A stretch of DNA of 64,000 nucleotides from Desulfobulbaceae bacterium DB1 (GTDB lineage Bacteria; Desulfobacterota; Desulfobulbia; Desulfobulbales; SURF-16): assembly GCA_001914235.1 (NCBI GenBank), contig MQUF01000003.1, forward strand, positions 448,225 to 512,224. The letters run 5' to 3'. The notes beneath the pieces were generated by a model that did not search any database, was not told the origin of the DNA, and saw only the letters and a program-made list of their open reading frames with translations. Each line of letters opens with the position of its first letter. Position 1 is the stretch's first letter. Below, piece after piece: positions 9,034 to 58,665 of the stretch. Position numbers and translations under genes: made by a program.

Positions 9034-9113
9034 ATTCCCATAATAAACAAAAAGTTGACTTTGGCGCAAGTTTTTTGCGTTTGAGCTAATGGCTTTCTTC
9101 GGACTGCACAGGA

Positions 9114-9150: not shown

Positions 9151-9183
9151 CTGTGTGTTGCTGGGTCTTGTTGGATGCTGATT

Positions 9184-9273
9184 TGGCGGAGAGGGTGGGA
9201 TTTGAACCCACGGTACCCTCACGGGTACACCGGATTTCGAATCCGGCTCATTCGGCCGCTCTGACACCTCTCC
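9184..9273 (-). tRNA. tRNA-Ser (anticodon CGA), class II with long variable arm, CCA encoded
   Basis: Reverse complement is GGAGAGGTGTCAGAGCGGCCGAATGAGCCGGATTCGAAATCCGGTGTACCCGTGAGGGTACCGTGGGTTCAAATCCCACCCTCTCCGCCA. It has a 7-bp acceptor stem, anticodon stem CCGGA/TCCGG with loop TTCGAAA, and T-arm GTGGG-TTCAAAT-CCCAC. Confidence 0.92.
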
Positions 9274-9546
9274 ATTGACCGGGGGCGCCGCCCTGCGGAT
9301 TGGTTCAACCATTGCTGAGCACCATCCGCAATGCAACTCTTCCGACACGCCCGTTTCCTCCATGATTAAAACAAATCCGCCTGAAAAACAACATGCATTA
9401 ACGATCCGCCGGTGAAAAAATTCAAATCAGGGGCAAGAAAAAAAGCAAACCCGTGCGGATATTTCCTGAATTGTCCGAGCAAATAAGGTATTCTCCCACC
9501 AATATAAAAAAACCGGCCGGATCGTCACTTCTCATACCGTAAAAAC

Positions 9547-32223: not shown

Positions 32224-32814
32224 ATGCTGGAAACCGGAATTTTACTCCTCCTGCTTGCCTCAGCCGTTCTCATGGTTATCGTCTTCTACAACCGTCTGAT
32301 AACCTTACGAAACCGCTACAAAAACGCATTTTCCCAGATCGACGTGCAACTGCAGCGCCGTTATGACCTGATCCCCAATCTGGTCGAAACCGCCAAGGTC
32401 TACATGAAGCATGAACGAGAAACGCTGGAGGCTGTCATTACCGCCCGCAACAATGCCTCCTCGGCCGTTCGCCGGGCATCTGCCGACCCGGCCGACGCCA
32501 CGTCAATGCAGGGCCTGTCTTCCGCCGACAACCTGCTGACCGGAGCGTTGAGCAGGCTTTTTGCCCTGGTGGAATCCTATCCCGACCTCAAGGCCAACCA
32601 GAACATGATGCAGCTTCATGAAGAGCTCAGCTCCACGGAAAACAGGGTTGCCTTTGCCCGTCAGGCATTCAACGATTCGGTCATGCAGTACAACACGGCG
32701 CGAGAACAGATTCCGGTGAATATCATTGCCATCCTGTTCGGCTTTGCCGAAGCGCCGCTGTTTGCAGCAGATGAGCCGGAAACCAGGAAAGCCCCGAAAG
32801 TCTCCTTCACCTGA
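32224..32814 (+). CDS. lemA: LemA family protein
   Basis: AAAAGGAGA RBS and one N-terminal TM. YNRLITLRNRYKNAFSQIDVQLQRRYDLIPNLVETAK is the LemA signature. Confidence 0.9.
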   Translation: MLETGILLLLLASAVLMVIVFYNRLITLRNRYKNAFSQIDVQLQRRYDLIPNLVETAKVYMKHERETLEAVITARNNASSAVRRASADPADATSMQGLSSADNLLTGALSRLFALVESYPDLKANQNMMQLHEELSSTENRVAFARQAFNDSVMQYNTAREQIPVNIIAILFGFAEAPLFAADEPETRKAPKVSFT

Positions 32815-32833
32815 GGCAAACCGATTCACGTCC

Positions 32834-34822
32834 ATGCTTGATTTTTTTGAACGCCAGGAGTCCGCGCGCCGCAATACCTTTCTTCTGCTTTTTCTTTTCT
32901 TTCTGGCAGTGGTGGTGATCGTCGGCGTCGTTCACTGGAGCGTCGCGCTTTTTCTGCTCTTTACCCCGCGCTATGCCATGACCGCACAGTCATTCGGCAG
33001 CCTGTTGACTGACCCGGACATCTCTCTTGTCACCATACCATCCGTCCTGCTCCTGATCTTTATCGGCAATGCCTATAAGTTCTTCACCCTGCGCCGGGGT
33101 GGAAGCGATATCGCCCTGCGCCTCGGCGGCCGGCTCGTCCTGCCGGACACAAGGGATCAACGGGAACAACGGTTGCTGCATGTGGTCGAGGAAATGGCCC
33201 TGGCCTCAGGACTTCCGGTTCCCCTTGTTTATGTGCTTGACCGGGAAAGCGGCATCAATGCCTTTGCCGCGGGCTTTACTCCGGCCGATGCGGTCATTGC
33301 CGTCACCGACGGCGCGCTGGCCCTGCTCAACCGCGATGAACTGCAAGGGGTCGTGGCCCATGAATTCAGCCATATCCGCAACGGCGACATGCTGCTCAAT
33401 ATTCGACTCATCGGCATCGTGCACGGCATCCTGCTTCTTCATCTTGCCGGCGGGTTTATCCTGCGGAGCTTTGAAACAAACCTTTTTAACAAACGAAGGC
33501 AAAACGGGGCAATCATTATGGCGGTCGGGTTTCTCCTCTATGCTCTCGGCTTCATCGGCGGGCTGCTGGCCAAACTGATCAAAATGGCCGTATCACGCCA
33601 GCGGGAATACCTGAGCGATGCCTCGGCGGTCCAGTTTACCAGAAATCCCCTCGGCCTTGCCTCGGCGCTGAAAAAGATCGGCGGCCTGACGCTTGGATCA
33701 AACCTGCGCCATCCCTTGGCTGAAGAGGCAAGCCACATGTTTTTCGGCAACGGCCTGGGCGACAGCCTGCTCGATATTTTCTCCACCCACCCGCCTCTTG
33801 CCAAAAGAATCCTTTTGCTTGATCCCGCCTTTGACGGCACATTTCCCCGAGTCAAACGGATTGTCGAGGAGATACCCGTTGCCGTGAAAAGGGCCGCGCC
33901 TCCGCCGCCGATGGCGCAGTCGGCAATTGCGTCCGCGGGAAACCTTGCCGGGGCCGCGGTTCCCGCCAATGTTTCAGCCGCGGCGGAACCGCATTCTCAA
34001 TCGCCAAACCACACCCCGGAACAGGTGATCGACCATCACATGCGGGAACGACGAAAAATGCTTGCGACCATACCGGAAATTGTCCGCAAGGCCTGCCGTG
34101 ACAACTACGGTGCCCAGGCAGTGGTGCTGAACCTCCTCTTCAGCCCGGAAGAAACGGTGCGGACTGCGCAATGGGAACTCGTCAGAAACTTTGCCGACCT
34201 TAAACTCGTCAAGGAAACGGAAAGACTCTTCCCCCTATTAACCACTGTTTCCAGATCAACACGGCTGCCGCTGATCGATCTCTCGCTGCCTGCCCTCAGA
34301 CTGCTCGACGAAAAGCAATACCGGGAATTCAGAAAACTTGAAAAGCACCTTGCCGACGCCGACCAGAAAACCGATCTTTTTGAATACATGCTGCATCGTG
34401 TCCTGGTGAGCCACCTGGAGCAGAATTTCGCCGCGCACCAGCCAAATGATGGGCAAAACGAACCAAAGGGGAATTTTGCCTGGGCATGCTCGATCGTCTT
34501 TACCCTCCTGGCGAAACACAGTTATAATAATGACGGGCAAGAAGCACGGGCCGCCTTTGACAGGACCGTATCTCGCATTGCCGCAGGCAAGCGGGACGGA
34601 ATTATTTTTCTGGCCGATCCCCGCTTGCATCCCCTCCGGGATTTTGATCGTGCCCTGCGGATCCTGGCGGAAACGGGACTAAGCAGCCGAAAAAATCTGC
34701 TTGCCGCCTGCCTGGAATGTATCACCAGGGACGGCCGAATCAGTTCGCAAGAGGCGGAACTGTTTCGCGCCATCGGCGAAGGACTGCATTGTCCGATACC
34801 AGCGCAACTCATTGCCTGCTGA
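32834..34822 (+). CDS. M48-family Zn metallopeptidase (HtpX-like) with a long C-terminal extension
   Basis: N-terminal TM segments and HEFSHIRNGD (HExxH). The ~330-aa C-terminal region is of unknown function. It directly follows lemA. Confidence 0.85.
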   Translation: MLDFFERQESARRNTFLLLFLFFLAVVVIVGVVHWSVALFLLFTPRYAMTAQSFGSLLTDPDISLVTIPSVLLLIFIGNAYKFFTLRRGGSDIALRLGGRLVLPDTRDQREQRLLHVVEEMALASGLPVPLVYVLDRESGINAFAAGFTPADAVIAVTDGALALLNRDELQGVVAHEFSHIRNGDMLLNIRLIGIVHGILLLHLAGGFILRSFETNLFNKRRQNGAIIMAVGFLLYALGFIGGLLAKLIKMAVSRQREYLSDASAVQFTRNPLGLASALKKIGGLTLGSNLRHPLAEEASHMFFGNGLGDSLLDIFSTHPPLAKRILLLDPAFDGTFPRVKRIVEEIPVAVKRAAPPPPMAQSAIASAGNLAGAAVPANVSAAAEPHSQSPNHTPEQVIDHHMRERRKMLATIPEIVRKACRDNYGAQAVVLNLLFSPEETVRTAQWELVRNFADLKLVKETERLFPLLTTVSRSTRLPLIDLSLPALRLLDEKQYREFRKLEKHLADADQKTDLFEYMLHRVLVSHLEQNFAAHQPNDGQNEPKGNFAWACSIVFTLLAKHSYNNDGQEARAAFDRTVSRIAAGKRDGIIFLADPRLHPLRDFDRALRILAETGLSSRKNLLAACLECITRDGRISSQEAELFRAIGEGLHCPIPAQLIAC

Positions 34823-36260: not shown

Positions 36261-36866
36261 ATGCAGGTCAACAACAAGCCATCCAATATTCCTTTCAAAA
36301 CTCCCGCCGAGGTTGACGGACAGAACAGGCTGCAAACACGTCAGGCTGCGGCAGGACAAACGCAGCAGACTCAAATCCTTGCCTCCGGGGACAAGCTGTC
36401 CATTTCCGGCGAGGCAAAGGCATTAAGCAACAACCAGAATGCCGCCTATGACGCAACCACCCCGGCACGGAACCAGACGCAGGTGCGGGCGCGGACAAAT
36501 GCGGCGGATGTTGCCGATAACAGCAGCAACACCGCAGCCCAGCTCCGAACCGCGCAAGAGCAGACAATGCGGATGAATCAGCCCCCTGCGCCACCCGAAC
36601 AGCCCTCGGAAACGGCGGCAAGCCGACCGGAACCGACCAGCAACGGCCAAACCGCCCCGTCGGCGCCGCCAAATACCTTAGCGCCCTCCGCCCCGGAGAG
36701 CACGGCACCTGCAACCGCAACCCAGCGCCCGGAGCCCGCTGCTCCCCCGATCCAGACCCTGCCCCCGCAGAGCATGAATACGGCCCAGAAAGCGGCGCAG
36801 GAAAGCCCGATATCCGCTGCGGGCGGTATGGCTGCAGGACCATATAATATCAACCTCACGGTTTAG
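36261..36866 (+). CDS. Hypothetical low-complexity (Ala/Pro/Gln/Thr-rich) protein
   Basis: GGAGG RBS before the ATG. 201 aa, largely low complexity. Followed by a strong terminator. Confidence 0.45.
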   Translation: MQVNNKPSNIPFKTPAEVDGQNRLQTRQAAAGQTQQTQILASGDKLSISGEAKALSNNQNAAYDATTPARNQTQVRARTNAADVADNSSNTAAQLRTAQEQTMRMNQPPAPPEQPSETAASRPEPTSNGQTAPSAPPNTLAPSAPESTAPATATQRPEPAAPPIQTLPPQSMNTAQKAAQESPISAAGGMAAGPYNINLTV

Positions 36867-36890: not shown

Positions 36891-36931
36891 GCAGCAGCCT
36901 CCAGCATGATGGACGGCTGCTGTTTTTTTTT
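36891..36931 (+). terminator. Intrinsic terminator
   Basis: CAGCAGCC / GGCTGCTG stem followed by T9. Confidence 0.8.
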
Positions 36932-37265
36932 GCCCTCCCAGCCCCATGCGATAATTTATCCTATGGCAAGACGTTTCGAGTCAATGATTGCCGACCAGGC
37001 CCTTTATTCGGCCAAATACAAGGGGAGAAACCAGGTAGTTTCATTTTCGAGTGCAAGCCGGCCTTCGAAGTGAAGCGCACTTGAAGCACTTCCCGCCTTT
37101 TTCCATCTCCTCCCTCGGCTATCATGCCGCTTCTCCTCAAACCGAACAAAATTGTTCGCGCCGAACTCGTTTTGCCGAAAAAGAAATGGGACAAACGACC
37201 ACCCCGTGGTACAATCCCGGCGACAAACGGTCTTTCTGCAAACAACCCCATGAACACACTGTAAA

Positions 37266-38864
37266 ATGAAAAAGAAACTGAGCAGCTATATTGCCGGCGC
37301 GTTTATCATCAATGTTTTCGCCATCCTCAGTGTAGGCGGCATCTGTACCTTGATGGTCAAAGACATGGTGACGAATATCGCCCGTCTGGAAAAGGAAAGC
37401 GGGAATGTCTCCACAATTTACCGACTGAACAACAAAATCCAGCATGCCGTCTTCATGGTTCACAATTCCATCGTTGATTATGATGAAACAGCGGAAAATG
37501 AAATCATGGCCACCATGGCCAAGGCGGAAAAAGACCTGCTCGACTATATGGGAAGTGAAAAGAGCGGGCACAATCTTCATACGCAGGAGGAATTCATTCT
37601 CCTGGAGAAACTTCACGACAATATCAGCGGCATCAAAACCCTTCTGCCCGAAATTTACCGCAACCTCACCCTTGCCGAGCCCCAGGATGAGAACGGGTTC
37701 AAACTGCTGGAAAAATATGCCTTTCACGCCCGGAACCTGACCCAGTCCATCAACGATGTTCATTTCAAAGTCGTGTCAGGCCTGGTCAAGGAATCTTACA
37801 ACAAGATGTTTTTCATCCTGCTGCTCTACCTGACCTGTTCGGTGGTGGGGATCCTCGCCTCCTGCGTCGGCTATGTGGTGTTAAGCCGTCATACGATCAA
37901 GCCGATCATCAATCTTGCCACCGCGACCCGCAGAATTTCCGGCGGCGATCTCGGTATCCGGGTTGCAACCGATTCCGAAACCGAAATCGGCACTCTGTAT
38001 CAATCATTCAATGCAATGACGGAAAAGCTGCAGGAACATCAGCGAAAACGGGAAGATTTCAACCGGATGCTGGAAAAACTGGTAAAGGAAAGGACCCGGG
38101 AACTGCTCGAATCAAATGAGTCTTTGTCCCGTACCCAGTCGGAACTGGTCAGGATGGAAAAAATCGCCACCCTGGGCCAGATCGCCACCTCGGTCAACCA
38201 CGAAATCAAAACACCGCTGAATGTCCTGTACATGAATCTGCAACTGCTCATTCGCAAGATAAACCAGTGCCCCATGGAAGGGGACTCGCTGAAACAGGGC
38301 ATGCTCGGTCTGACCGAGATCATCAATAATGAAATCGGCAGAATCAATGAAATAATTGAAGAATTCGTCAAATATGCCCGTTTCCCCGCCCCGAAAATCA
38401 AAGAAAGCGATATCAACAAAATACTTACCGACATCGCGGAGATGGTCACCCAGAATGCACGGGAGGCGGACATCAGCATCGATCTTCAGCTTGATGACAA
38501 TTTACAGACCTGCCCGGTTGATGCTAAGATGATGATTCAGGCTCTGCTCAATCTCTGCATGAATGCCATCCAGGCCATGCCCTACGGCGGATCCTTGAAA
38601 ATTGAAAGCAAAAAACTGGAATCATGCACGAAAATATCGATCATCGATACCGGACAGGGCATTGAAGCGGCCGACCTTGACCGCATCTTCGATCCCTTTT
38701 TCACCAAAAAAGACGGAGGCCTGGGTTTTGGGCTTGCAATTGTCCAGCGAATCATCGAAGATCACCGTGGTTCCATTTCCTGCCGGAGCGAGGTGGAAAA
38801 AGGGACCGAATTCACCATCATTCTTCCGACAACGACAAAGGCAATCTGTCAGGATATCATATAA
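37266..38864 (+). CDS. Sensor histidine kinase (periplasmic sensor, HAMP, HisKA, HATPase_c)
   Basis: Two TM segments flank a ~150-aa loop, followed by a HAMP domain. H-box SVNHEIKTPLN, and N/G boxes (LNLCMNAIQA, DTGQGI, GGLGFGL). Confidence 0.9.
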   Translation: MKKKLSSYIAGAFIINVFAILSVGGICTLMVKDMVTNIARLEKESGNVSTIYRLNNKIQHAVFMVHNSIVDYDETAENEIMATMAKAEKDLLDYMGSEKSGHNLHTQEEFILLEKLHDNISGIKTLLPEIYRNLTLAEPQDENGFKLLEKYAFHARNLTQSINDVHFKVVSGLVKESYNKMFFILLLYLTCSVVGILASCVGYVVLSRHTIKPIINLATATRRISGGDLGIRVATDSETEIGTLYQSFNAMTEKLQEHQRKREDFNRMLEKLVKERTRELLESNESLSRTQSELVRMEKIATLGQIATSVNHEIKTPLNVLYMNLQLLIRKINQCPMEGDSLKQGMLGLTEIINNEIGRINEIIEEFVKYARFPAPKIKESDINKILTDIAEMVTQNAREADISIDLQLDDNLQTCPVDAKMMIQALLNLCMNAIQAMPYGGSLKIESKKLESCTKISIIDTGQGIEAADLDRIFDPFFTKKDGGLGFGLAIVQRIIEDHRGSISCRSEVEKGTEFTIILPTTTKAICQDII

Positions 38865-38873
38865 GGTGCACCC

Positions 38874-40214
38874 ATGCCGCAGACCACCATACTGATTGTC
38901 GATGATGACAAAATGACACGGCAGACGCTTTCCCTGGCTCTTGAGGATCATTATCAGACCATGACGGCCAAGGACGGGAAAACCGCCCTGGAAACGCTCA
39001 GGGAGCAGGAAATCGACATCGTCCTTTCCGATCTTTTCATGCCGGGGATGAACGGCATTGAGCTGCTTGAGCAAATCAATCAGTTGCCGGAAAAGCCGCC
39101 GGTCATTTTCATAACCGGCCAGGGCACGGTCGAAACCGCCGTGCAGGCCATGAAACTGGGCGCCTATGACTATGTCACCAAGCCGATCAACATCGACCGC
39201 CTGTGTCTTATCATCGAAAAAACCCTGGAAAATAAACGACTCAAGGAAGAAAACATCCTGCTGAAGGAAAAGATAAAGGAAAACTATCCCGACCTTTCCC
39301 TTATCGGCGATTCCCCGGTCATGCAAAAGGTCAAGGCACTGGCCCATCAGGTGGCCTCCACCACCGCAACCGTGCTCATTGAAGGGGAAAGCGGCACCGG
39401 CAAGGAACTGATCACCAACATCATCCACTACAACAGCCCGGTGGCCCACGGTCCGTTCATCAAAGTCAACTGCGCGGCCTTTGCCGAAGGCGTGCTGGAA
39501 TCGGAACTTTTCGGTCATGAAAAAGGTGCCTTTACCGGCGCCGTGGCCGCGAAGAAAGGCCGTTTCGAGCTGGCCGACAACGGCACCCTTTTTCTCGATG
39601 AAATCGGAGAAATGCCCCAGTCGATCCAGGTCAAGCTGCTGCGCTTTCTCCAGGAGCAGACCTTTGAGCGGGTCGGCGGCACAAAAACCCTGAAGGTGCA
39701 AGTGCGGATTATCTCCGCCACCAACAGAAACCTGACGGAAATGATCAAGGAAGGGACCTTCCGGGAAGACCTTTATTACCGCCTCCGGGTGGTCAAGATC
39801 GAGATGCCCCCTTTACGGGACAGACGGGAAGACATTCCTCCCCTGGTGGACAATTTTCTGAAGAAATTCTCCCACCGGCACGGCAAACCGATTCAGCGGG
39901 TGTCGAACGAGGTTATGAACCTGATCAAACAGTATAACTGGCCGGGCAACATTCGGGAATTGATGAACTGTATAGAGAGCTCGGTGGTCATGGCGCGGGG
40001 CGACACGCTGACCATCGATTCCATACCGGAATACCTGACCTATACCGAAAATGGTTCGGAACCGGAAAGCAAGGAAGGGGCGCTGCATGAAATGGAGCGT
40101 CAGCTTATCACCGATGTGCTCAACAAAACGGCAGGCGACAAGGTGCGGGCGGCGAAAATTCTCGGCATCGGCCTGCGCACCCTGTACCGCAAACTGGACA
40201 GATGGGAGATGTGA
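38874..40214 (+). CDS. Sigma54-dependent response regulator (NtrC family enhancer-binding protein)
   Basis: Receiver domain (ILIVDDD..DIVLSDLFMPGMNG). AAA+ domain with GESGTGKE and the GAFTGA loop. C-terminal Fis-type HTH (AAKILGIGLRTLYRKL). Confidence 0.95.
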   Translation: MPQTTILIVDDDKMTRQTLSLALEDHYQTMTAKDGKTALETLREQEIDIVLSDLFMPGMNGIELLEQINQLPEKPPVIFITGQGTVETAVQAMKLGAYDYVTKPINIDRLCLIIEKTLENKRLKEENILLKEKIKENYPDLSLIGDSPVMQKVKALAHQVASTTATVLIEGESGTGKELITNIIHYNSPVAHGPFIKVNCAAFAEGVLESELFGHEKGAFTGAVAAKKGRFELADNGTLFLDEIGEMPQSIQVKLLRFLQEQTFERVGGTKTLKVQVRIISATNRNLTEMIKEGTFREDLYYRLRVVKIEMPPLRDRREDIPPLVDNFLKKFSHRHGKPIQRVSNEVMNLIKQYNWPGNIRELMNCIESSVVMARGDTLTIDSIPEYLTYTENGSEPESKEGALHEMERQLITDVLNKTAGDKVRAAKILGIGLRTLYRKLDRWEM

Positions 40215-40251
40215 TCAGCCAATCATCCCGATTCGGTGCAACGCCGCCTGA

Positions 40252-42141
40252 TCATCCATTTTTCTCCGCCGGGGAAAACAACGCGTGCGCGGCCTTGATT
40301 GCGGCGCAAGCCGGCCCGTCGTCAGGCGCGAGGGCGGAATCCCCGGCTATCCTCTTTTTCGAGGTGCATTCATAGACGATCTCCATTTCCTCCCGATCCA
40401 GGGTCTCATTAAGCAGCAGCATATCGGCCAGATAAATGACAAAGTCCTTTTCCGCTGTTAATATTTCCCGCGCCTCCTGGTAGCAGGATTCAACCAGTCT
40501 TTTCACCTCCCGGTCTATCCGCTGTCCCGTTTCTTCACTGTAGGCGGACCTGTTCAGCTGTTCCCCGAGAAAGCCCCCATCGTTCTGCAGATAGGCCAGC
40601 GGTCCGATTGCCTCACTCATGCCCCACTGGCACACCATCTTGGTGGCAAGACTGATGGCCTGACGGAAATCGTCCTCCGCACCGGTGGTCTGCTGTGACA
40701 GGCAAATCTCCTCCGCCACACGACCGCCCATGAGAATCTTGATGCGGCTGAGCAGGTATTCCCTTGAATAGGCGTGGCGATCAGTCAACGGCAATTGCTG
40801 GGTATGACCAAGCGCCTTTCCCCTGGGGATGATGGTAATCTTATGGACAGGATCGGTTTCCGGCAGGTGGCGGGCGAGCACCGCATGGCCTGATTCATGG
40901 TAGGCCATGGTCTTGCGATCCTTCTCGCTGATGACAAGCCCTTTTCGTTCAACCCCCATCAGGATCCGGTCCTTGGCCTTTTCCATATGCTCCGGCCGGA
41001 TGGCGCTGTCGCCCATGCGTCCGGCAATAAGAGCCGCTTCGTTCATCAGGCTTGCAAGCTCGGCGCCGGTGAATCCCGGGGTGCTGCGCGCCACATTTTC
41101 AAGATCCATGTTCTCGGCAAGCGCCAGTTTCTGGGCATAAACCCGGAGAATCTGCAGCCTGCCTTTGACATCGGGTGGGAGAATACTGATCTGCCGGTCA
41201 AAACGGCCCGGCCGCAGCAGGGCCGGATCAAGGATATCCGGCCGGTTGGTGGCGGCGAGAATAATGATCGTCTCTTCAGTGGAAAAACCATCCATTTCAA
41301 CCAGCAGGGCGTTGAGCGTCTGGCCGCGCTCATCCTGCCCGCCGGTCATGCTGCCCGCACCTCGGTGCCCTCCCACCGCATCGATCTCATCAATAAAAAC
41401 AATGCAGGGCGTATTTTTTTTCGCCTCCTTGAAGAGATCCCGCACCCTGGAGGCGCCGACGCCGACAAACATCTCGACAAAATCCGAACCGCTGATGGAA
41501 AAAAAGGGGACGCCGGATTCTCCGGCGATGGCGCGGGCCAGCAACGTCTTGCCTGTGCCCGGCGGGCCCTGAAACAGGATGCCGCGCGGGATGACCGCCC
41601 CGAGTTTGCTGTATTTTTTGGGCCGCTGAAGAAAATCAATCACCTCCAGCAATTCCTCCTTGGCCTCCGGTACCCCGGCGACATCACGAAACGTCACCTG
41701 TTTATACTTTTTCTGGGGAGTAAAATGGGCAAGCTTCTCCCTGCCGAAATCCGCCTCGTTTTCCCCGGTCCCATGATTGCGCAGCAGGGAAAACCAGACA
41801 ATGAGAATAAGCATCATCGGCACGGCGAGTTCGGCAACCTGCCACAGCATTGCCGCCTTTTTCTCCGCCGGCAGAACAACAACATTCTTGGCAAGCAGCC
41901 TGGGCAAGAGGGAAGGGACATCCGGGGCAAACGAGGAAAACTCGCGGCCAAATGTATCGGTAAGGGAAATTTGCCCCTGATCAAGGCGGACCTCGGCTAT
42001 TTCGCCTCTTTCCAGGGTCTCAAGGAATTCGTTGTAACTGATTGGCGGAAGACGGTTTTCAATAGTCCAGAAGACGGCAACGATCCCGCCGACGACAATC
42101 AAGGCCACAACGGCAAACAACGTACGAATAAAAAGGGTCAA
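40252..42141 (-). CDS. ftsH: ATP-dependent zinc metalloprotease FtsH
   Basis: GPPGTGKT Walker A, the SRH region and HESGHA zinc site. The track ORF uses a TTG start with GGAG upstream. Confidence 0.93.
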
Positions 42142-42297
42142 CTCGGCAGACTCCGTTAAGGTGGATTGACGGTCACGACATCATCGACACAAAAATATAC
42201 TATATAATGGCAACGTATTGCTTGCAAAAGTTATTCCGTAAATCTCCGCCCGCCGAACAGCCCAAACAAGGGCATCCAGCCCTTTCCGGAATCTCCC

Positions 42298-42334
42298 TTT
42301 TGTCAAAATGACAAAACAGCATGCCATTTTGACA
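42298..42334. promoter_or_regulatory. Candidate enhancer (UAS): overlapping dyads TTTTGTCA-AAA-TGACAAAA and TGTCAAAAT-N16-ATTTTGACA
   Basis: A perfect 8-3-8 palindrome at 42298-42316. A further inverted 9-mer lies at 42326-42334. The centre is about 85 nt upstream of the sigma54-type promoter. Confidence 0.45.
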
Positions 42335-42388
42335 ACAAAAAAGACCGCCATTTCTCACAACATGTCGGAACAACACAAAAAATACCTT

Positions 42389-42404
42389 TGGCACGATAAT
42401 GGCA
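42389..42404 (+). promoter_or_regulatory. Candidate sigma54 (-24/-12) promoter
   Basis: TGGCACGATAATGGCA has a perfect -24 TGGCAC and correct GG-N10-GC spacing. The -12 element is TGGCA rather than TTGCA. It lies about 72 nt upstream of ATG 42477. Confidence 0.55.
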
Positions 42405-42476
42405 ATAAAACACAAGCAAGAGACACAACAAACAAATAATCCAAAACAGAAAGCATCAGCACCATGGAGGAAGCAA

Positions 42477-42710
42477 ATGAAAGCAACGAACCCCGAAGCC
42501 AAGGCCCAGGTAAAAAAACGCTCCACCGTTTCAAGTTCGGAAAACATCCAGGCCAAGGTTGAAGTTTCCAAGGGCGTTGTCATTGCGCTGGGCACAGCTC
42601 CGGCGCTGATCGGCATCTGGGCGGCCGCCTGTTTTGTCGGAGGTCTCGTTGCAAGCGGCGGTCCCATCGGCATGGTGAAAAGCTGGTTTTCGGCAATAAG
42701 CGGCATGTAA
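42477..42710 (+). CDS. Small (77-aa) C-terminally membrane-anchored protein, paralogue 1
   Basis: GGAGGAAGCAA precedes the ATG. A polar N-terminus is followed by ALIGIWAAACFVGGLVASG..WFSAISGM. Confidence 0.6.
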   Translation: MKATNPEAKAQVKKRSTVSSSENIQAKVEVSKGVVIALGTAPALIGIWAAACFVGGLVASGGPIGMVKSWFSAISGM

Positions 42711-42771
42711 GGATCCTTAAGCAATTTATTCCGAATGTAATCGACGACAACTGATGCAACGGAGGTGCCCC

Positions 42772-42996
42772 ATGAAAGAAGCAACATTGACAAAAAAACA
42801 AAACAAGGCACGGACAGGTGAACATATTCAGGCACAGACGGGTCTTGACACGTTTGCCACAGGCACCATCTCCGTCATGGGCGGCATTTCCGCCATCATC
42901 GGCATCTGGGCTGCAGCCTGCTTCATCGGCGGTCTTCTCAGCAGCGGCCCGGTTGAATTGGCTTACGGATGGTTCAGGGCGATAACCGGCCTGTAA
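42772..42996 (+). CDS. Small (74-aa) C-terminally membrane-anchored protein, paralogue 2
   Basis: GGAGGTGCCCC precedes the ATG. AIIGIWAAACFIGGLLSSG..WFRAITGL shares an almost identical core with the preceding gene. Confidence 0.6.
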   Translation: MKEATLTKKQNKARTGEHIQAQTGLDTFATGTISVMGGISAIIGIWAAACFIGGLLSSGPVELAYGWFRAITGL

Positions 42997-43163
42997 AACC
43001 CGCCCCGAGAGTGAGCATGCTGCACAGACAAACAATCCCTCCCCCTGAGTCCCGCCAACGAATGGACAAGAAAAGCACGCGGCAGAGCCGCGTGCTTTTC
43101 CCTGTTTGCGACGCAAATCACCTTCGTCTCAGCCGCCACTGTTGAGCCGAGGAAACCAAAGAA

Positions 43164-44627
43164 ATGAGCAAATCGTCTCCCAGCTTCATGAAAGCGGCGG
43201 TCAATCGAATTTCCCGCAGCAAACTTTCCGTTATCGGCGCGGTTCTCCTCATCTTCGTCAGCCCGATTCTCAGCCTCTCCGTTTTTCTCGACATTCAGGG
43301 CATCGTCAATAATCCCTATTTCGGCTTTCTTATTTATCTTGTTCTCGGACCGCTGTTTCTTTTAGGCATTATCCTGCTTTTTATCGGCATCATTACCTCC
43401 AGGGGCAAGGAGGACATCGGCCTCTTCACCTTTGAATACATCGAAGAACAACTCGCCCGTCCCGGCCGTTACAGCCGTATCCGGCGGCATCTTTACTTCA
43501 GCGTCACCCTCACCCTGGTGACCCTGTTCCTGGTCGCCCTTGTTTCCTATACCGGCTTTCACTATACGGAATCAAATGCATTCTGCGGCCAGTTCTGCCA
43601 TACGGTCATGGAGCCGGCTTTCACCTCGCACTCCAATTCCCCGCACTCTCGGATTTCCTGCGTCAATTGCCATATGGGCAAAGGTTCCCGGTGGATGACC
43701 AAAACCAAGTTCTCCGGTGTCAAGCAGCTTTTTGCCGTCATGTTCGACACCTATCACCGCCCCATCCGTCAGCCCATCGACACCCTGCGCCCGACACGGG
43801 CTACCTGTGAGGAATGTCACCGTCCAGACATGTTTCACGGCGACAAACTCTATATCAAGGACCGTTTTTTACCTGACAAAGACAACACCCACGTCCAGAC
43901 GGCGCTGCTTATGCGGATAGGATCGGGCGGCTACCTCGGCAGAAAAGCCCACGGTATCCACTGGCATGTTTCCGAGGACAACCAGGTTTTCTACAAATAC
44001 AGCGATCTGCATCAGGAGGAAATCGCCCAGGTCTGGCTGCAGAACGGAAACAAGAAAACCATTTACAGCAAAACCGCCTTGCAGCAGCAGGTACCGGCAA
44101 CCCTGTTGAGTGGCACTGTCCGGAAAATGGACTGCATGGACTGCCATAACCGGCCCACCCACGTTTTTCTCAGCGCGGAAGAGGCATTGGACGAAAAAAT
44201 TCTCATGGGGGTTATTCCCCGCACCATCCCCTTTATCAAGAAAAACGGGGTTGAAATCGTCAGCCGGCACTATGATTCGGTGGAACAGGCACTGGAAGCC
44301 ATTTCACAAGATCTGTTCCAATGGTACGAAAAGAATTATCCGGATTTCACCTCAAGCAAAAAACATCTGCTTGACAAGGCGGTCGCTGGAATCCAGCAGG
44401 CCTACCGGGAAAACGTCTTTCCCGATATGGAGGTGGGCTGGAATACCTATGACAATTTTATCGGCCACAAGGACGGAAACGGCTGTTTCCGTTGTCACAA
44501 GGGAGAGCACGTCAGTGAAGAGGGCAAGGTGATCAGCCATGATTGCGACAGTTGCCATGTGATTCTGGCGGAAAACGAACCCCAGCCCGATGTTCTGCGC
44601 ATTCTCAAGGAAGAAGCCGCCAAGTAA
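43164..44627 (+). CDS. Membrane-anchored multihaem c-type cytochrome (NapC/NirT-like N-terminal module; 5 CXXCH plus 1 CX3CH)
   Basis: N-terminal TM segments. Haem sites are CGQFCH (CX3CH), CVNCH, CEECH, CMDCH, CFRCH and CDSCH. Confidence 0.85.
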   Translation: MSKSSPSFMKAAVNRISRSKLSVIGAVLLIFVSPILSLSVFLDIQGIVNNPYFGFLIYLVLGPLFLLGIILLFIGIITSRGKEDIGLFTFEYIEEQLARPGRYSRIRRHLYFSVTLTLVTLFLVALVSYTGFHYTESNAFCGQFCHTVMEPAFTSHSNSPHSRISCVNCHMGKGSRWMTKTKFSGVKQLFAVMFDTYHRPIRQPIDTLRPTRATCEECHRPDMFHGDKLYIKDRFLPDKDNTHVQTALLMRIGSGGYLGRKAHGIHWHVSEDNQVFYKYSDLHQEEIAQVWLQNGNKKTIYSKTALQQQVPATLLSGTVRKMDCMDCHNRPTHVFLSAEEALDEKILMGVIPRTIPFIKKNGVEIVSRHYDSVEQALEAISQDLFQWYEKNYPDFTSSKKHLLDKAVAGIQQAYRENVFPDMEVGWNTYDNFIGHKDGNGCFRCHKGEHVSEEGKVISHDCDSCHVILAENEPQPDVLRILKEEAAK

Positions 44628-44681
44628 ACGCCGGCAGGCTTGATTCAAAACAATAACGACATACCGACGGAGTAGTTTGCA

Positions 44682-46124
44682 ATGAAAGATGATGAGCCAA
44701 ATAACGACCAGGAAAACGACTATCCAAAAAATTATGACCACGAGGGAGCCTTTGACCGCCTGCTGAAGGGGCTATGGCGCTCACCCCTGGGCGTTTTCGG
44801 TGTGGCGCTGACCACTATCAGCATCACCCTGATGATGATCGGCACCATCATCGACATGACCGGCCTGATCGACAACCCATACGCATCCCTGGTGACATAC
44901 ACCATTCTGCCGGTGGGCATGCTGATAGGCCTTGCCCTGATCCCCCTTGCCGCTTTCCTGCGCAGACGGAAATGGCATAAATACGGTGTCGACCGCGACC
45001 ATCTGCAGCTCAACCTGAGTAACCCCAAACACCGTCTGGCCCTGATCGGCTTCATCGTTCTTTCCGTGACCAACGTGGCTATTCTCGCGGTCATCGGTTA
45101 TGAAGGCTATCATTTCACCGATTCGTCCTATTTCTGCGGTGTCGTCTGCCACCAGGTGATGGAACCGGAATATGTGGCCTATAAGCGTTCCCCCCACTCC
45201 AGGGTGGCCTGCGTCGAATGTCACATCGGACCGGGAGCGGAATGGTACGCCCGCGCCAAGCTTTCCGGATTGCGCCAGGTGGCGGCCGTTATGCGCAATA
45301 CCTACAGCCGGCCCATTCCCGCCCCGGTCCATGAGCTGCGTCCGGCCAGGGATACCTGCGAACAGTGCCACTGGCCGGATAAATTTCACGGCAAAAGGAT
45401 AAAAAGATTTGTTTCCTTCAGCAACAATGACCAAACAAATCCGGAAATCACCGAAGTTGCCCTGCATATCGGCGGCCACAACCCCGAAACGAACGTCTTT
45501 GAAGGAATCCACTGGCATGTCAGCCATGAGGTGGAAGTAAGCTATCTGGCGGCGGACGAAAAACGCACGCAAATCGCCAAGGTCAGGGTGAAACGACCGG
45601 ACGGGACCGCGGATGAATTTATCAAGGGCGACATTGAAGTCCCGGCAACCGAGGAAGAAAACTGGCGGGTAATGGACTGCATCGACTGCCATAACCGCCC
45701 CACCCACATTTACAATATGCCGGAAGAAAGGGTTGATTTCGGTCTGCTCAGTAAAAAAATCAACCCTGAAATCCCCGGCATCCGCGAGGACAGCCTCAAG
45801 GTAATCACCAAGGAGTATGCATCCCGCGAGGAGGCAAAGGCTTCCATGACCAACGACCTGATTTCCCTGCAAAAACAACGGGATGCCGGGATGGCGGAAA
45901 CAAACAAAAATGATCTGCTCAAGGCCGGCGATTTCCTGCTGGAAGCATACCTCGGCAACGTCTGGCCGGAAATGAAGGTTGCCTGGGGTACCTATCGCGA
46001 TCATCTCGGCCACCAATGGGCTGATGACGGATACGGCTGCTGGCGCTGCCACGACGAAGAGCACGTCAACAGCGCAGGGGAAACCATTTCCCAGGATTGC
46101 TCCATCTGCCATGATGAACCCTGA
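44682..46124 (+). CDS. Membrane-anchored multihaem c-type cytochrome, paralogue of the preceding gene
   Basis: Same architecture and motif order: CGVVCH (CX3CH), CVECH, CEQCH, CIDCH, CWRCH, CSICH. Shared blocks include SPHSR..C.ECH.G, MDC.DCHNRPTH and GC.RCH. Confidence 0.85.
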   Translation: MKDDEPNNDQENDYPKNYDHEGAFDRLLKGLWRSPLGVFGVALTTISITLMMIGTIIDMTGLIDNPYASLVTYTILPVGMLIGLALIPLAAFLRRRKWHKYGVDRDHLQLNLSNPKHRLALIGFIVLSVTNVAILAVIGYEGYHFTDSSYFCGVVCHQVMEPEYVAYKRSPHSRVACVECHIGPGAEWYARAKLSGLRQVAAVMRNTYSRPIPAPVHELRPARDTCEQCHWPDKFHGKRIKRFVSFSNNDQTNPEITEVALHIGGHNPETNVFEGIHWHVSHEVEVSYLAADEKRTQIAKVRVKRPDGTADEFIKGDIEVPATEEENWRVMDCIDCHNRPTHIYNMPEERVDFGLLSKKINPEIPGIREDSLKVITKEYASREEAKASMTNDLISLQKQRDAGMAETNKNDLLKAGDFLLEAYLGNVWPEMKVAWGTYRDHLGHQWADDGYGCWRCHDEEHVNSAGETISQDCSICHDEP

Positions 46125-46326: not shown

Positions 46327-46394
46327 TCGGCCCAGGCCGGCAAAACCCAACCCTTTTCGTGACGCCAGTGCACTCAGAAACAGACGCAAATCAC

Positions 46395-47501
46395 ATGAAT
46401 GGGCGCAGACGCGCCTGGCTGCTGCAACTTTACCGGGAACACCGGCAGATCAGCCTGCTGCACCGGCTGCATCTTTCGACGCCGATCATTGAAATCAGCG
46501 CGGCCTCGACATACTGGGGAAGCTGGCAGTCGGCGGGCGGCGCCATCCGGATCTCTTCCCGGCTCATCGAACTCCACACCTGGGACGTGGTGATCAATGT
46601 CCTCAAACACGAGATGGCCCATCAGGCGGTAAGCGAGCTTTTCCACAGCCGGGAAGGCCACGGCGACCTTTTTGCCAGGGCCTGCGACATGCTGGGAGTC
46701 CCGGACGGTTTCAGGGAAGCCGGCGGCGATCTGCCCCGTTCCCTGCCGACCATCCACGAAAAAGCACAAAAGAGTCCGCAACACGCCCTGCTGCTGAAAA
46801 TAGAAAAAATCCTGGCCCTGGCCCGCTCAAGCAATGAACATGAAGCGCAGCTCGCCATGGAAAAGGCCAACCAGCTCATCACCCGCTACAACCTTGCCCG
46901 GGTCACCACGGAAAATGACACCGGTTACGACTGCATCATCATCAATCACAAGAAGAAACGGATCGAAAATTACCAGCGGAGAATCTGCGCCGTCTTGAGC
47001 CGCCATTTCTTTGTCCGTATCGTGCTGGCCGATCTTTATGATCCGGATCTCTGCTGCAGCCACAAAACCATCGAAATCCTGGGCGCCCGGGAAAACGTGC
47101 TGACCGCCGAATACGTCTATCATTTTCTTCTTTCCCGCATGGAGTCCTTCTGGGAAGAGTTCCGGCGCCGCAACCAAACCGGCGGCAACAGGAAACGATC
47201 CTACTGCCTGGGACTGCTGGATGGATTTGACGCGAAACTTACGGCCGGGGAGCAGGAAAACGCCGTTACTCCAAAGGCAGCCGCCGGTCAAAACATTTCC
47301 GCCCTGGTCTGCGAAGCCGACAGAGGGCTGAGCCTTTTCATCCGCAGGCGCCATCCCCGCCTGGCGCGCAGGAGCCATGCCGGGGCCGGCGTTTCCCGCC
47401 GGGAGTATGAAGCCGGCAGGCAGGACGGTGACAAACTGGTGCTGCACAAGGTGATGGAAAACCATGACGGCAACCGGGGCAAAATGCTGCCTTGTCGGTA
47501 A
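46395..47501 (+). CDS. SprT-like Zn-metalloprotease domain fused to a DUF2786-like domain
   Basis: Contains HEMAH. The later segment LLLKIEKILALARSSNEHEAQLAMEKANQLITRYNL is typical of DUF2786. Confidence 0.7.
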   Translation: MNGRRRAWLLQLYREHRQISLLHRLHLSTPIIEISAASTYWGSWQSAGGAIRISSRLIELHTWDVVINVLKHEMAHQAVSELFHSREGHGDLFARACDMLGVPDGFREAGGDLPRSLPTIHEKAQKSPQHALLLKIEKILALARSSNEHEAQLAMEKANQLITRYNLARVTTENDTGYDCIIINHKKKRIENYQRRICAVLSRHFFVRIVLADLYDPDLCCSHKTIEILGARENVLTAEYVYHFLLSRMESFWEEFRRRNQTGGNRKRSYCLGLLDGFDAKLTAGEQENAVTPKAAAGQNISALVCEADRGLSLFIRRRHPRLARRSHAGAGVSRREYEAGRQDGDKLVLHKVMENHDGNRGKMLPCR

Positions 47502-56784: not shown

Positions 56785-58665
56785 TCAGGGCAAGGTCACC
56801 TGCAGATCCGCATCCTCGCTGAGGGTGTAATCCACCTTGTTGTAGGCGGCGTCGATGGTCTGCACCCGGATATTGTAGGTTCTGCCGGCAAGGGTATAGA
56901 CATGACTCATGACGGCAGCGGCCGGGTTGCTGTACACAGTGCTGCGGCGATCACCCCAGTAGACATAGGCCCTTTGCACATTCTCCGGGAAAGCCGCATT
57001 CAGGCTTACCGTCCTGCCGTTGACCGCGGTGGTGAAATCGATGACCGGGGCCTGCGATTCCACCAAGACCGCGGCGGCATTGACCACGGCGGTCGCGCTT
57101 TTGCCGCTCACCGATTCACGCATGGTCAGTGTCGCGCTATAGGTCCCCTCGCTGTCATACTGGTAAACGATACTCTCATTGCCGTTGCCGCCCGTGATGC
57201 TGCCGGTTCCCCCGAAGTCCCAGGTGTAGCTGCAGGTGCGCGCTAGCGCCACGCCATTGACGGTTTCGTAGCAGGCGGAACGGCTGGCGTCAAAACTCAC
57301 CGTCCGGTCCGTGTCAAGGGAAGAAAGGGCTGAGACATGCGGCACAACGCTTATCTCAACATAGTTCTCCCATCTGACCGGGTCTGAATATCCCCAGTAT
57401 GCATGGCAGGAGTTGGACGAACAGCTGCCGCCGCCCTCGGCCGGGGTATAGGTGAATGACAGAGCCTGATCACCGTCTCCGTTTCGCCCCGGAAAAGTCG
57501 GGCCAGGCGCGACATTGACCGTGCCGTTGTTATGGCTGGCGCTGATGTTTGATCCATCCGTGGTCGTCTCATAATGGCAGGTCTGGCAGCCATAGCCGAT
57601 CTGGGTGTGGCGCCCGTGCCGGTCATTTTCCCCTTGTGCCGGTGGATAGTCATGGCAGGAATTGCAGCTGGGAAGAAAACCGTTCTTGTGCTCATGACAG
57701 GCCAGACAATCCTGACCCGCATTATGCTCAATACCGGAACCATCTGCCCGCCAGTAATTGGTCGTGGTGTGACAGACCTGACAAATGCCGTCCGGGGTGG
57801 AATCCGTCCCTCCTGCCCCGAGCCCGTCGTTTTTAGCCGCATCCTGACGGCCGAGAAAACGCACGGGAGAGCTGGTCCAGCTGGATGGAGCCGTCGTATC
57901 GGTATAGATTCGGGACAAAATTTCCTGGCCGTAAAAAACCCTGAGCACACCAGGAGGGTACGGCTCGAAAACATCATTTCTCAATTGTCCCTTGATCACA
58001 ATCGTGCTGGTGCCGTCAGGGTTGGTGGCGGCATCGAGAATTTCGCCGTACCAGACACGGGGGCGATTGCCTGGGTCACGAATAATCTCCAGCATCAGCC
58101 CGCGTTCCGGTCCTGTTTTCTTATTCCAGCTGCCGAGATCGTTCCACTGTACCGCATTGACCGTCATCTGCACCCCGGAGAAGGTTGTCGTATCCATGGC
58201 CGGATCCCAAACCCCGGCGCTGGTATATGTCCCCTCGGCAATTGCCGGGGTAAGGAGCGGGTTGACATGACCAATCTGCGGCGGATGAAATTCGGCATTC
58301 TGGCTGGGGCCGTGATGGCAGGAACCGCAGCCCCGGATCAAGGTCCCCCTGGGGTCGCTGCCGAGTGCGGCGGCGGAATGCGATTCCATGGCCGGTGCGG
58401 AATGCAGGCTGTAGGGAGGCCCGTTTTCATTGACATGACAGCTTGCGCAAAGAAAACGATTGGAATAAAAGGACCAGCTTCCCGTGACCCCGTCATCCGT
58501 ATGGCAGTTCCCGCAGTCGCGGAAACTGAAACCATCCGAGTTCATATAACTGGTTGCGTTATGAGGCGACTGCTCATAAAAACTGTAGGTCAACTGGGCC
58601 GCGGCCGCCCCAGGCATGGCCAGAACCACCAGCAGGGGCAGACTCTTCATCATTTTTTTCTTCAT
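56785..58665 (-). CDS. Secreted multihaem c-type cytochrome (7 CXXCH plus 1 CX4CH) with two C-terminal PKD/Ig-like domains
   Basis: Signal peptide present. Haem sites are CGNCH, CASCH, CGSCH, CQVCH, CLACH, CNSCH, CQTCH and GGGSCSSNSCH. The PKD-like segment is CSYTWDFGGTGSITGGNGNESIVYQYDSEGTYSATL. Confidence 0.85.
   Translation of the reverse strand: MKKKMMKSLPLLVVLAMPGAAAAQLTYSFYEQSPHNATSYMNSDGFSFRDCGNCHTDDGVTGSWSFYSNRFLCASCHVNENGPPYSLHSAPAMESHSAAALGSDPRGTLIRGCGSCHHGPSQNAEFHPPQIGHVNPLLTPAIAEGTYTSAGVWDPAMDTTTFSGVQMTVNAVQWNDLGSWNKKTGPERGLMLEIIRDPGNRPRVWYGEILDAATNPDGTSTIVIKGQLRNDVFEPYPPGVLRVFYGQEILSRIYTDTTAPSSWTSSPVRFLGRQDAAKNDGLGAGGTDSTPDGICQVCHTTTNYWRADGSGIEHNAGQDCLACHEHKNGFLPSCNSCHDYPPAQGENDRHGRHTQIGYGCQTCHYETTTDGSNISASHNNGTVNVAPGPTFPGRNGDGDQALSFTYTPAEGGGSCSSNSCHAYWGYSDPVRWENYVEISVVPHVSALSSLDTDRTVSFDASRSACYETVNGVALARTCSYTWDFGGTGSITGGNGNESIVYQYDSEGTYSATLTMRESVSGKSATAVVNAAAVLVESQAPVIDFTTAVNGRTVSLNAAFPENVQRAYVYWGDRRSTVYSNPAAAVMSHVYTLAGRTYNIRVQTIDAAYNKVDYTLSEDADLQVTLP

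Follow-up and report, generated by a model that had tools for sequence, protein, structure and literature searches.

The 64,000-nucleotide stretch of Desulfobulbaceae bacterium DB1 analysed here, hereafter the window (contig MQUF01000003.1, positions 448,225 to 512,224), carries at positions 37266-46124 genes for a sensor histidine kinase (HK), an NtrC-type response regulator (RR), the membrane protease FtsH, two small membrane proteins and two multihaem c-type cytochromes. With somewhat better than even confidence we read this locus as the DB1 version of a module conserved in Desulfobulbia, which combines one to three tandem copies of a 65-80-residue single-pass protein with FtsH and one or two six-haem ImcH-type cytochromes, and for which we propose the control and function developed below. 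The small-protein family, the conserved FtsH-ImcH linkage and the very regular enhancer are new; the cytochromes, as new members of the ImcH family, and the control by a two-component system and sigma-54 are known in kind. Searches of the literature on the DB1 genome, on ImcH with FtsH or Desulfobulbaceae, on NapC/NirT proteins of cable bacteria and on FtsH with small proteins or sigma-54 found no description of the module. The original prediction had proposed an uncharacterised respiratory module at this site, and all the genes that it described are present according to the open reading frame (ORF) listing, Pfam and NCBIfam.

Conserved neighbourhood of the small genes, ftsH and the cytochromes

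The ftsH gene of the window (40252-42141, minus strand, 629 residues) is followed on the plus strand by small gene 1 (42477-42710, 77 residues), small gene 2 (42772-42996, 74 residues) and the cytochrome genes cyt1 (43164-44627, 487 residues) and cyt2 (44682-46124, 480 residues). Comparable loci, cited below by L numbers, were gathered in three ways: from the small proteins, by a scan of GTDB species genomes, and from the cytochromes. The GTDB scan yielded 25 loci, all from metagenome-assembled genomes (MAGs) of Thermodesulfobacteriota, and its narrower query alignment biases it toward closer relatives. Every ORF of each locus was scored with a hidden Markov model (HMM) of the small family and with the HK, RR, FtsH and cytochromes of the window, and the array statistics cover 33 non-redundant small-gene arrays.

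Almost without exception, the small genes form tandem arrays of two or three. FtsH is encoded within 1 kb of 20 of the 33 arrays and within 5 kb of 22, an ImcH-type cytochrome within 1 kb of 15 and within 5 kb of 21. An orthologous regulator (at least 600 bits) lies within 5 kb of 15/33 arrays, and any sigma-54 regulator within the same distance of 20/33. The L023 array is accompanied by the HK/RR pair, with a cytochrome 6.5 kb off. When sampling was anchored on the cytochromes, FtsH was found immediately upstream on the same strand in six of seven loci (L034, L036-L040), with FtsH-cytochrome gaps as short as 33-79 nt, and the small family was present in four of the seven. The co-occurrence analysis of the small family with the cytochromes, for which the original prediction had called, thus finds a cytochrome within 5 kb of 21 arrays; FtsH is the more constant partner, and orphan arrays exist.

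In other genomes no neighbour of the small genes, or of the cytochromes, is as constant as FtsH, which is thus not an unrelated gene that happens to lie in between. Because this adjacency recurs from both the small-gene and the cytochrome side of the sampling, the comparison of gene orders identifies ftsH as a core member of the module and the window layout as a local inversion in the DB1 lineage. The commonest order elsewhere is small genes, stem-loop, ftsH, cyt1, cyt2. The DB1 clade (11 GTDB loci) has HK-RR-FtsH-small-small-cyt1-cyt2-SprT with FtsH inverted, so that the same-strand set of two small genes and two cytochrome genes, as predicted, is present in the window and at the same time represents a lineage-specific rearrangement. 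Other arrangements are HK-RR-small-small-cytochrome-small-small-FtsH in a Desulfurivibrionaceae MAG (L007), HK-RR-small-FtsH-cyt1-cyt2 (L021, L038), small-small-FtsH-cytochrome-MerR (L004, L037), small-FtsH-cytochrome-cytochrome (L034, which is Thiovibrio sp. JS02, and L036), and two tandem units of RR, two or three small genes and FtsH with a divergent cytochrome (L028). Such varied gene orders argue for a functional link over inherited order.

The FtsH of the window scores 734 bits against TIGR01241 (cut-off 600) and matches the Pfam families FtsH_ext, AAA and Peptidase_M41; its translation contains two N-terminal transmembrane (TM) helices and intact Walker A and B motifs, pore loop and HEXXH motif (HESGH), and E. 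coli FtsH (7vhp) is matched with 574 bits. L028 holds two module ftsH copies that are 57% identical. At L012 the module ftsH is cut to a remnant of the C-terminal protease domain (8993-9709, residues 388-620), yet all other parts of that module are intact, which suggests a dispensable copy. The module FtsH may therefore be a non-essential paralogue rather than the sole FtsH of the cell. A weak sigma-70-like promoter candidate for ftsH (TTGCAA-17-TATAGT, 42199-42228, minus strand) comes from a consensus scan, in which the number of matches in the region was no higher than expected from shuffled sequence.

The small membrane proteins

The two small proteins are paralogues with 42% identity (E 2e-18). 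Small gene 1 begins at 42477 behind a GGAGGA Shine-Dalgarno sequence, and its product is 100% identical to GenBank BM485_04645; an upstream ATG at 42399 is overlapped by the sigma-54 promoter, which places the start at 42477. Small gene 2 starts at 42772 behind GGAGG. A first search found ten relatives, nine of them exactly 77 residues long, and a profile search gave 241 matches, stand-alone proteins of 64-114 residues. An exhaustive HMMER search of 1.84 billion representatives extended the family to about 270 clusters (50% identity) at E ≤0.001. The 150 matches listed are all short (41-114 residues), nearly all of them aligned over most of their length, and none among them shows the family as a domain of a larger protein. 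Searches of Pfam (32 members singly, E 5), NCBIfam and the PDB sequences gave no meaningful match, in line with the original statement that the proteins have no recognised family.

The family consensus opens with a basic stretch of about 30 residues (MKxTxxxxKxR...). A helix follows, G-I-W-A-A-A-C-F-V-G-G-L, whose Trp and Cys show little or no variation, and then a G-G-P break and a short terminal segment, SWFxAVxGM. Small protein 1 accordingly combines a basic tail, one TM helix with GIWAAACFVGG, the GGP break and a short C-terminal amphipathic helix, and small protein 2 belongs to a distinct subtype with the signature 'GLDTFA...GPVELAYGWF'. Conservation is strongest on one face of the TM helix. 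Each subtype is kept as its own orthologue group, adjacent to the other, in many genomes. This retention side by side suggests that the two may form a heteromeric pair. The subtypes could not be separated by their neighbour, FtsH or cytochrome, in the short alignment.

Comparison of small gene 1 with its orthologues from nine further genomes gives ratios of nonsynonymous to synonymous substitution rates (dN/dS) of 0.12-0.40, with dS saturated, and of its 77 codons 70 vary at the third position compared with 34 at the second. These two patterns indicate that the small ORFs are protein-coding in the plus frame. Together with the ~270 clusters they agree with the expectation that the ORFs are conserved and translated, and we conclude from the comparative data that they are real genes under purifying selection which constitute a new, unannotated family. 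A 211-residue ORF on the opposite strand (42200-42835) was rejected, as the third-position variation follows the plus frame. Signal peptides or precursors of ribosomally synthesised and post-translationally modified peptides were likewise discarded: the hydrophobic segment of about 25 residues is the best-conserved part, and no modification or export genes stand beside the arrays. Type IV pilins are not a match either, given that the N-terminal pilin leader is missing and that the hydrophobic segment lies in the C-terminal half.

One MAG, Modern_marine_rock_biofilm.mb.12, contains at least four small-gene arrays (L025, L026, L027, L029). Convergent to two orphan arrays lies a gene for a protein of about 135 residues (L024 10479-10880 and L029 10661-11068, both minus strand), in which a PilZ-like RxxxR...D/NxSxxG pattern was noted by eye.

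Cytochromes of the ImcH family

The two cytochromes are 35% identical over 454 residues (E 1e-103), and this pair and the small pair correspond to the two internal duplications recognised in the original prediction. Hydropathy places three helices in cyt1 (18-48, 51-82, 108-133) and in cyt2 (~34-63, 67-94, 117-142), and the AlphaFold 2 model of cyt1 has helices at 20-44, 51-78 and 103-134. The predicted N-terminal membrane part is therefore present, as three helices and not as a single anchor. Directly after the third helix both proteins carry a CX3CH motif (CGQFCH at residue 141 of cyt1, CGVVCH at residue 152 of cyt2), which is followed by five CXXCH motifs, in cyt1 at 166, 215, 324, 441 and 461, to give six haem motifs each.

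These features recur in descriptions of ImcH. In the definition of Levar et al., ImcH of Geobacter (GSU3259) carries seven haem motifs, the first being CX3CH, in addition to a NapC/NirT-like region and a set of three putative TM helices. According to a genomic survey, three TM helices characterise the homologues of ImcH, together with an atypical CX3CH beside the membrane domain and five to nine further CXXCH motifs; Table S3 of the survey lists GSU3259 with helices at 13-35, 45-67 and 100-122 and haem motifs at 132, 156, 205, 311, 428, 448 and 486, as well as six-haem homologues of 450-490 residues in Anaeromyxobacter, Geothrix, Geoalkalibacter and Desulfocapsa sulfexigens. The spacing of the haem motifs is 24, 49, 109, 117 and 20 in cyt1 as compared to 24, 49, 106, 117 and 20 in GSU3259. 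For ImcH, Pimenta et al. give H137 and Q179 as ligands of haem 1 and E127, K173 and Y188 as conserved residues. By positional mapping from the CX3CH histidine, the equivalents are E136, K182, Q188 and Y197 in cyt1 (ImcH positions +9) and D147, K193, Q199 and Y208 in cyt2 (+20). In an alignment of 32 relatives the haem-1 Gln is invariant and Lys and Tyr are at least 90% conserved.

Profile searches agree with the proposed NapC/NirT-like first module. PF03264 is matched with E 1.2e-7 and 1.5e-7, and TIGR03153 (NrfH) with E 1e-11 and 4e-12, the latter under that family's own cut-off; the sole solved relative by sequence is NrfH (2j7a, E 6.5e-7), which covers residues 117-220, i.e. the module of the third helix and the first haems. 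More than 4,170 relatives were found at E <1e-5, those with a source name being mostly 'NapC/NirT family cytochrome c'. A Foldseek search of the PDB with the AlphaFold 2 model of cyt1 returned only noise (best E 0.35, spliceosome helicases), as is to be expected of a haem-less model.

Both cytochromes are thus assigned to the six-haem class of the known ImcH family of inner-membrane quinol dehydrogenases, by the published signature and not by alignment to GSU3259, and they do not represent the uncharacterised type that had been proposed. Every ImcH signature element examined is found in them save the Geobacter-specific seventh haem: there are six motifs only, and the proteins stop about 20 residues past haem 6. 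As the published family spans six to ten motifs, the missing haem 7 rules out the Geobacter subtype only. Menaquinol oxidation and electron delivery to periplasmic carriers have been shown biochemically only for ImcH of G. sulfurreducens.

The likeness to Geobacter ImcH hence comprises the three N-terminal TM helices, the CX3CH near the third helix, the NapC/NirT/NrfH-like first module, the haem spacing and the haem-1 Gln with Glu/Lys/Tyr. There are also differences. Six haems stand against seven in Geobacter, where haem 7 is the proposed solvent-exposed exit site. The Geobacter imcH gene is monocistronic and reported as constitutive, whereas the genes described here are tandem ancient paralogues, linked to ftsH, to the small-protein family and, in the DB1 clade, to a sigma-54 two-component switch, and the genome that carries them is a Desulfobulbaceae MAG.

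Type 1 and type 2 cytochromes are separately conserved across Desulfobulbia and differ in their N-terminal cytoplasmic tails. The type-2 tail has about 33 residues (44682-44780 in cyt2), is rich in Asn, Asp and Glu and has a net charge of 0 to -6; such an acidic tail was also seen in at least six sequences from five other loci, among those listed. Type-1 tails are basic and 14-21 residues long, with the exception of a probably over-extended 53-residue ORF in L035. A second cyt1-cyt2 pair is present at L012 (295-3250), about 7 kb upstream of the first.

Kinase, regulator and the sigma-54 promoter

The sensor kinase (37266-38864, plus strand, 532 residues; Pfam HAMP, HisKA and HATPase_c) is laid out as a first TM helix, a helical periplasmic region of about 150 residues, a second TM helix, HAMP, HisKA and HATPase. 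The adjoining NtrC-type regulator (38874-40214, plus strand, 446 residues) consists of a receiver, a Sigma54_activat AAA+ domain with GAFTGA and a Fis-type helix-turn-helix (HTH_8), as identified with Pfam and NCBIfam. Both remain below the cut-offs of the equivalog families: the kinase scores 200 bits for AtoS (cut-off 646) and also misses ZraS, and the regulator reaches 504 for AtoC (714), 448 for NtrC (559) and 396 for ZraR (760). A six-frame scan of the 64 kb found GAFTGA and ESGTGKE in this regulator only, which confirms it as the sole sigma-54 activator of the window. Orthologues of the kinase (535-990 bits) stand beside small-gene arrays in 16 loci.

Upstream of small gene 1 lies a -24/-12 promoter, TGGCACgataaTGGCA (42389-42404, plus strand), which had been called the best of the window. 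It is indeed the only exact match to TGGCAY-N5-TDGCA there and is conserved across loci; taken alone it is within chance, since 24 of 100 shuffled sequences contain at least one match. The enhancer, an upstream activating sequence at 42301-42334 (plus strand) composed of the inverted repeats TGTCAAAATGACA and TGCCATTTTGACA, withstands the same comparison. The arrangement TGTCAAAATGACA-N8-TGCCATTTTGACA is unique in the window and is matched in none of 100 shuffles, even with two mismatches, and together with its conservation across loci this establishes the enhancer as real. The repeats are 21 bp apart and start 88 and 67 nt 5' of the -24 element. A second sigma-54 site (42755-42770, minus strand) was put down to chance, being on the wrong strand and within small gene 2. 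No sigma-54 promoter or palindrome of this type precedes the cytochrome genes in the window.

Other genomes repeat this architecture with great regularity. Of the 33 arrays with upstream sequence, 28 have a GG-N10-GC promoter, TGGCAY-N5-T(A/G/T)GCA, about 60-90 nt 5' of their first small gene. Twenty promoters carry a pair of TGYCA-N3-TGRCA palindromes at -88/-67 (±2 nt), counted from where the -24 element begins; with L023, at which the pair is shifted by about 22 nt (-111/-89), the double palindrome is present in 21 arrays, and two further promoters have a single repeat. The sequence between palindromes and promoter elements is not conserved. All 16 loci with an orthologous regulator (at least 650 bits) carry the motif, while three arrays that adjoin a different sigma-54 regulator (~300 bits; two at L028 and one at L032) have a sigma-54 promoter without it. 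Loci that are devoid of a sigma-54 site (L004, L031, L034, L036, L037) are also devoid of the palindromes. In Modern_marine_rock_biofilm.mb.12, the two arrays with upstream sequence (L026, L029) have the same sigma-54 promoter, TGGCACGGTTCTGGCA, and both carry the double palindrome, with the HK/RR pair beside L026 only; an enhancer and promoter common to two arrays of one MAG, of which one has the HK/RR pair beside it, fits a small regulon.

The perfect co-occurrence of regulator and motif and the conserved synteny in several orders put the link between the HK/RR pair and this promoter, formerly drawn from proximity only, on a comparative footing. Most likely, the regulator of the window binds the TGYCA-N3-TGRCA palindromes. 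The pair resembles ZraSR and AtoSC in its domain architecture and in tandem inverted repeats that precede a -24/-12 promoter by about 100 bp. It differs from these systems and from NtrC in its scores under the equivalog cut-offs, its binding motif and its regulon. As a regulatory analogue, the Geobacter sulfurreducens cbcBA operon is the closest. It is controlled by sigma-54 and BccR and opens with two hypothetical proteins, and in both cases a sigma-54 promoter and a receiver-domain enhancer-binding protein stand over an inner-membrane quinol-oxidising cytochrome. In contrast to the module, cbcBA encodes a b-type membrane subunit and the seven-haem CbcA, and no FtsH.

Two side observations concern regulators at other loci. 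A PilS-like kinase with six TM helices and a short receiver/HTH_8 regulator recur 5' of small-FtsH-cytochrome units that have no sigma-54 promoter (L004 925-2858, L036 3361-5268, L037 582-1583), and this pair may be an alternative regulator. Beside the small-small-FtsH-cytochrome unit of L004, the region 4001-7353 (minus strand) encodes two cytochromes, one b-type (Ni_hydr_CYTB) and one multihaem c-type, as well as a sigma-54 activator with a PAS domain, a layout reminiscent of Geobacter cbcBA/bccR.

A stem-loop behind the small genes

Between small gene 2 and cyt1 the DNA contains a perfect 14-bp stem-loop, GAAAAGCACGCGGC-aga-GCCGCGTGCTTTTC (43070-43100, plus strand), with a flanking A tract and a T-rich tail. 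It is a candidate terminator or attenuator; RNA folding of the intergenic region gives z = -3.8, and only about 60 nt separate the hairpin from cyt1. Searches of Rfam with 42100-43250 gave no match to an RNA family. In nearly all of the 26 loci compared, a strong hairpin (-17 to -37 kcal/mol) stands behind the last small gene. It often takes the A-tract/stem/T-run form of an intrinsic terminator and is present whether the next gene is a cytochrome gene, ftsH or a convergent gene. As a conserved terminator-like hairpin intervenes between the small genes and the cytochrome genes, the simple co-transcription of all four, which had been presumed, is doubtful. The small genes probably form a strongly expressed unit of their own, and the genes downstream would receive attenuated read-through or be served by promoters that we do not see.

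Other genes of the region

Downstream of cyt2 lies a gene for a SprT-like/DUF2786/DUF7168 protein (46359-47501, plus strand, Pfam), whose membership of the module is uncertain. It follows cyt2 in nine related GTDB loci and is absent from more distant ones, where a MerR-family gene takes the place of the putative SprT-like metalloprotease (L004, L034-L037). Immediately 5' of the kinase, the sister genome L001 has an intact gene for a 413-residue HAMP-GGDEF protein. DB1 retains only the last ~35 residues of such a protein (36954-37049, plus strand, inside an ORF at 36906-37073), and the equivalent space holds a 201-residue low-complexity ORF rich in Pro, Ala and Gln (36261-36866) that has no family match. 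A few kb 5' of the module, 32726-34822 (plus strand) encodes a further membrane protease, a 698-residue protein with an M48 peptidase domain and a putative N-terminal sensor domain. A 626-residue protein with seven CXXCH motifs (56785-58665, minus strand), encoded about 10 kb away from the ImcH-type genes, combines a cytochrome c7-like stretch and a PKD domain with a weak MtrC/MtrF-like match and is a possible periplasmic or outer electron carrier.

Discussion

For the working of the module we propose the following. The kinase would sense a periplasmic or membrane signal through its ~150-residue helical periplasmic region and phosphorylate the regulator, which would then bind the two palindromes, 21 bp apart and on the same helix face, and activate the sigma-54 promoter. 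Most transcripts would stop at the stem-loop that follows small gene 2, so that the small proteins are made in excess, and the cytochrome genes, before which the ftsH inversion of the DB1 clade has placed the small genes directly, would be fed by read-through or by an unseen promoter. The small proteins are predicted to insert with the N-terminus inside and the C-terminus outside, leaving a basic tail of about 30 residues in the cytoplasm; type 1 would probably pair with type 2 via the helix face of small residues. In the membrane they would act on the machinery of FtsH and the ImcH-type cytochromes, which we take as menaquinol:periplasm electron-transfer proteins of the NapC/NirT superfamily. 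Their likeliest role would be that of modulators or adaptors that set the FtsH-dependent assembly or turnover of these quinol dehydrogenases, and the outcome would be a respiratory branch adjusted to the kinase signal.

An adaptor role is favoured because the small genes abut ftsH and not the cytochrome gene in co-directional operons, because their copy number does not follow that of the cytochromes, and because of the ~30-residue cytoplasmic tails, a length sufficient for engagement by FtsH. Short hydrophobic proteins that act with FtsH are known: MgtR, SpoVM and YccA are small membrane-protein modulators or substrates of the protease. They have no sequence relation to the family described here, and we know of none among them that is encoded in arrays adjoining ftsH. 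A bolder form of this proposal, which we consider unlikely, sees in the small proteins a new class of inducible membrane-embedded FtsH adaptors or protectors that decide between retention and degradation of the ImcH-type cytochromes. This would amount to a proteolytic switch of a respiratory branch, driven by the kinase via sigma-54, with the basic small-protein tails and the acidic type-2 tail as cytoplasmic handles.

Several observations weigh against the module as we read it. Four arrays have neither FtsH nor a cytochrome within 10 kb (L022, L024, L029, L030), and two are accompanied by the HK/RR pair only (L005, L026). Conversely, FtsH-cytochrome pairs occur without small genes (L039, L040), a small-cytochrome pair occurs without FtsH in a Desulfuromonas MAG (L031), and L035 has a lone cytochrome. 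With exceptions in every direction, none of the three parts strictly requires another. The AlphaFold 2 model of the small protein (helix 11-59, break, helix 63-75) is of low confidence (predicted local distance difference test score of 57); the window hairpin, which is among the best, is yet unlisted by a simple terminator scanner; and all sampled loci are MAGs, with Thiovibrio sp. JS02 as a possible exception.

The main rival explanation takes the small proteins as 'crutch' subunits in the manner of TorE and NapE, which would sit on the TM helices of the ImcH-type cytochromes and aid their anchoring or oligomerisation, the adjacency of FtsH reflecting quality control or inherited order. Experiments on the same cytochrome superfamily provide a direct precedent: the small single-pass proteins TorE and NapE attach to the membrane anchors of NapC/NirT-family cytochromes in 4:4 complexes and also form homo- and hetero-dimers. 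The proteins of the module resemble them in being small, single-pass and encoded beside a membrane cytochrome of the NapC/NirT superfamily, and in that one face of the TM helix is the most conserved part of the family. A cytochrome gene comes directly after the small genes in the DB1 clade, in the first array of L007 and in L031, the last of which has no FtsH. However, no sequence relation to NapE or TorE is detectable (no profile match for 32 members at a Pfam E of 5, and none in NCBIfam), and the proteins here are longer (65-80 residues), with a basic N-terminal tail and a conserved Trp/Cys/Gly-Gly/Gly-Pro/Trp-Phe pattern. Their genes form tandem arrays, often beside ftsH or alone; where all three parts are co-directional, as at L004, L020/21, L028, L034 and L036-L038, it is ftsH that they abut and not the cytochrome gene. 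Furthermore, the copy number of the small genes does not track that of the cytochromes, and the second unit of L028 has FtsH and no nearby cytochrome. As the arrays also stand alone, the small proteins are not obligate 'dedicated subunits' of the cytochromes, as originally suggested, and we regard the crutch role as a tentative possibility.

The orphan arrays lend themselves to another explanation, in which a sigma-54 response to envelope or membrane stress, of the ZraSR-ZraP or PspF-Psp kind, has the small proteins as its chief product, or in which they provide kinase feedback like MgrB, in either case independently of the cytochromes. In several genomes the unit of promoter, array and terminator does stand alone, it can multiply (at least four arrays in one MAG, with L026 and L029 sharing the enhancer), the HK/RR pair is the only module partner within ~1-3 kb at L005, L023 and L026, and the kinase and regulator are most similar to AtoSC and ZraSR. 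Still, the frequencies of FtsH and of a cytochrome within 5 kb (22/33 and 21/33) are far beyond chance for unrelated genes, and the association outlasts a change of regulator and promoter, being retained at L034, L036 and L037 in the absence of a sigma-54 site, so that we find this reading distinctly unlikely. Highly improbable in our view is a self-contained, co-transcribed operon of two small and two cytochrome genes that would form a new electron-transfer unit unrelated to ftsH. The four genes do follow the promoter on one strand, and the layout is kept in 11 related GTDB loci. It is limited to one clade, though, while elsewhere ftsH lies between the small genes and the cytochromes; the conserved stem-loop splits the set, and the cytochromes fall into a described family.

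To our knowledge, the ImcH-type cytochromes are one of only three families that draw electrons from the quinone pool for extracellular electron transfer. Studies in Geobacter have dealt with them as lone, constitutive genes. The Desulfobulbia, which include sulfur disproportionators and relatives of cable bacteria, by contrast present the family as an ancient paralogue pair tied to FtsH and to undescribed small proteins, often under a regular sigma-54 enhancer-promoter. The enhancer motif and its regulator define a clean, testable regulon, and Thiovibrio sp. JS02, with a complete genome and a small-ftsH-cyt-cyt operon, may be an experimental entry point. Should the link prove functional, it would suggest that a quinol dehydrogenase is regulated through its assembly or turnover, and the list of small proteins that have a part in respiration or in protease function, a short one so far, would grow by about 270 clusters.

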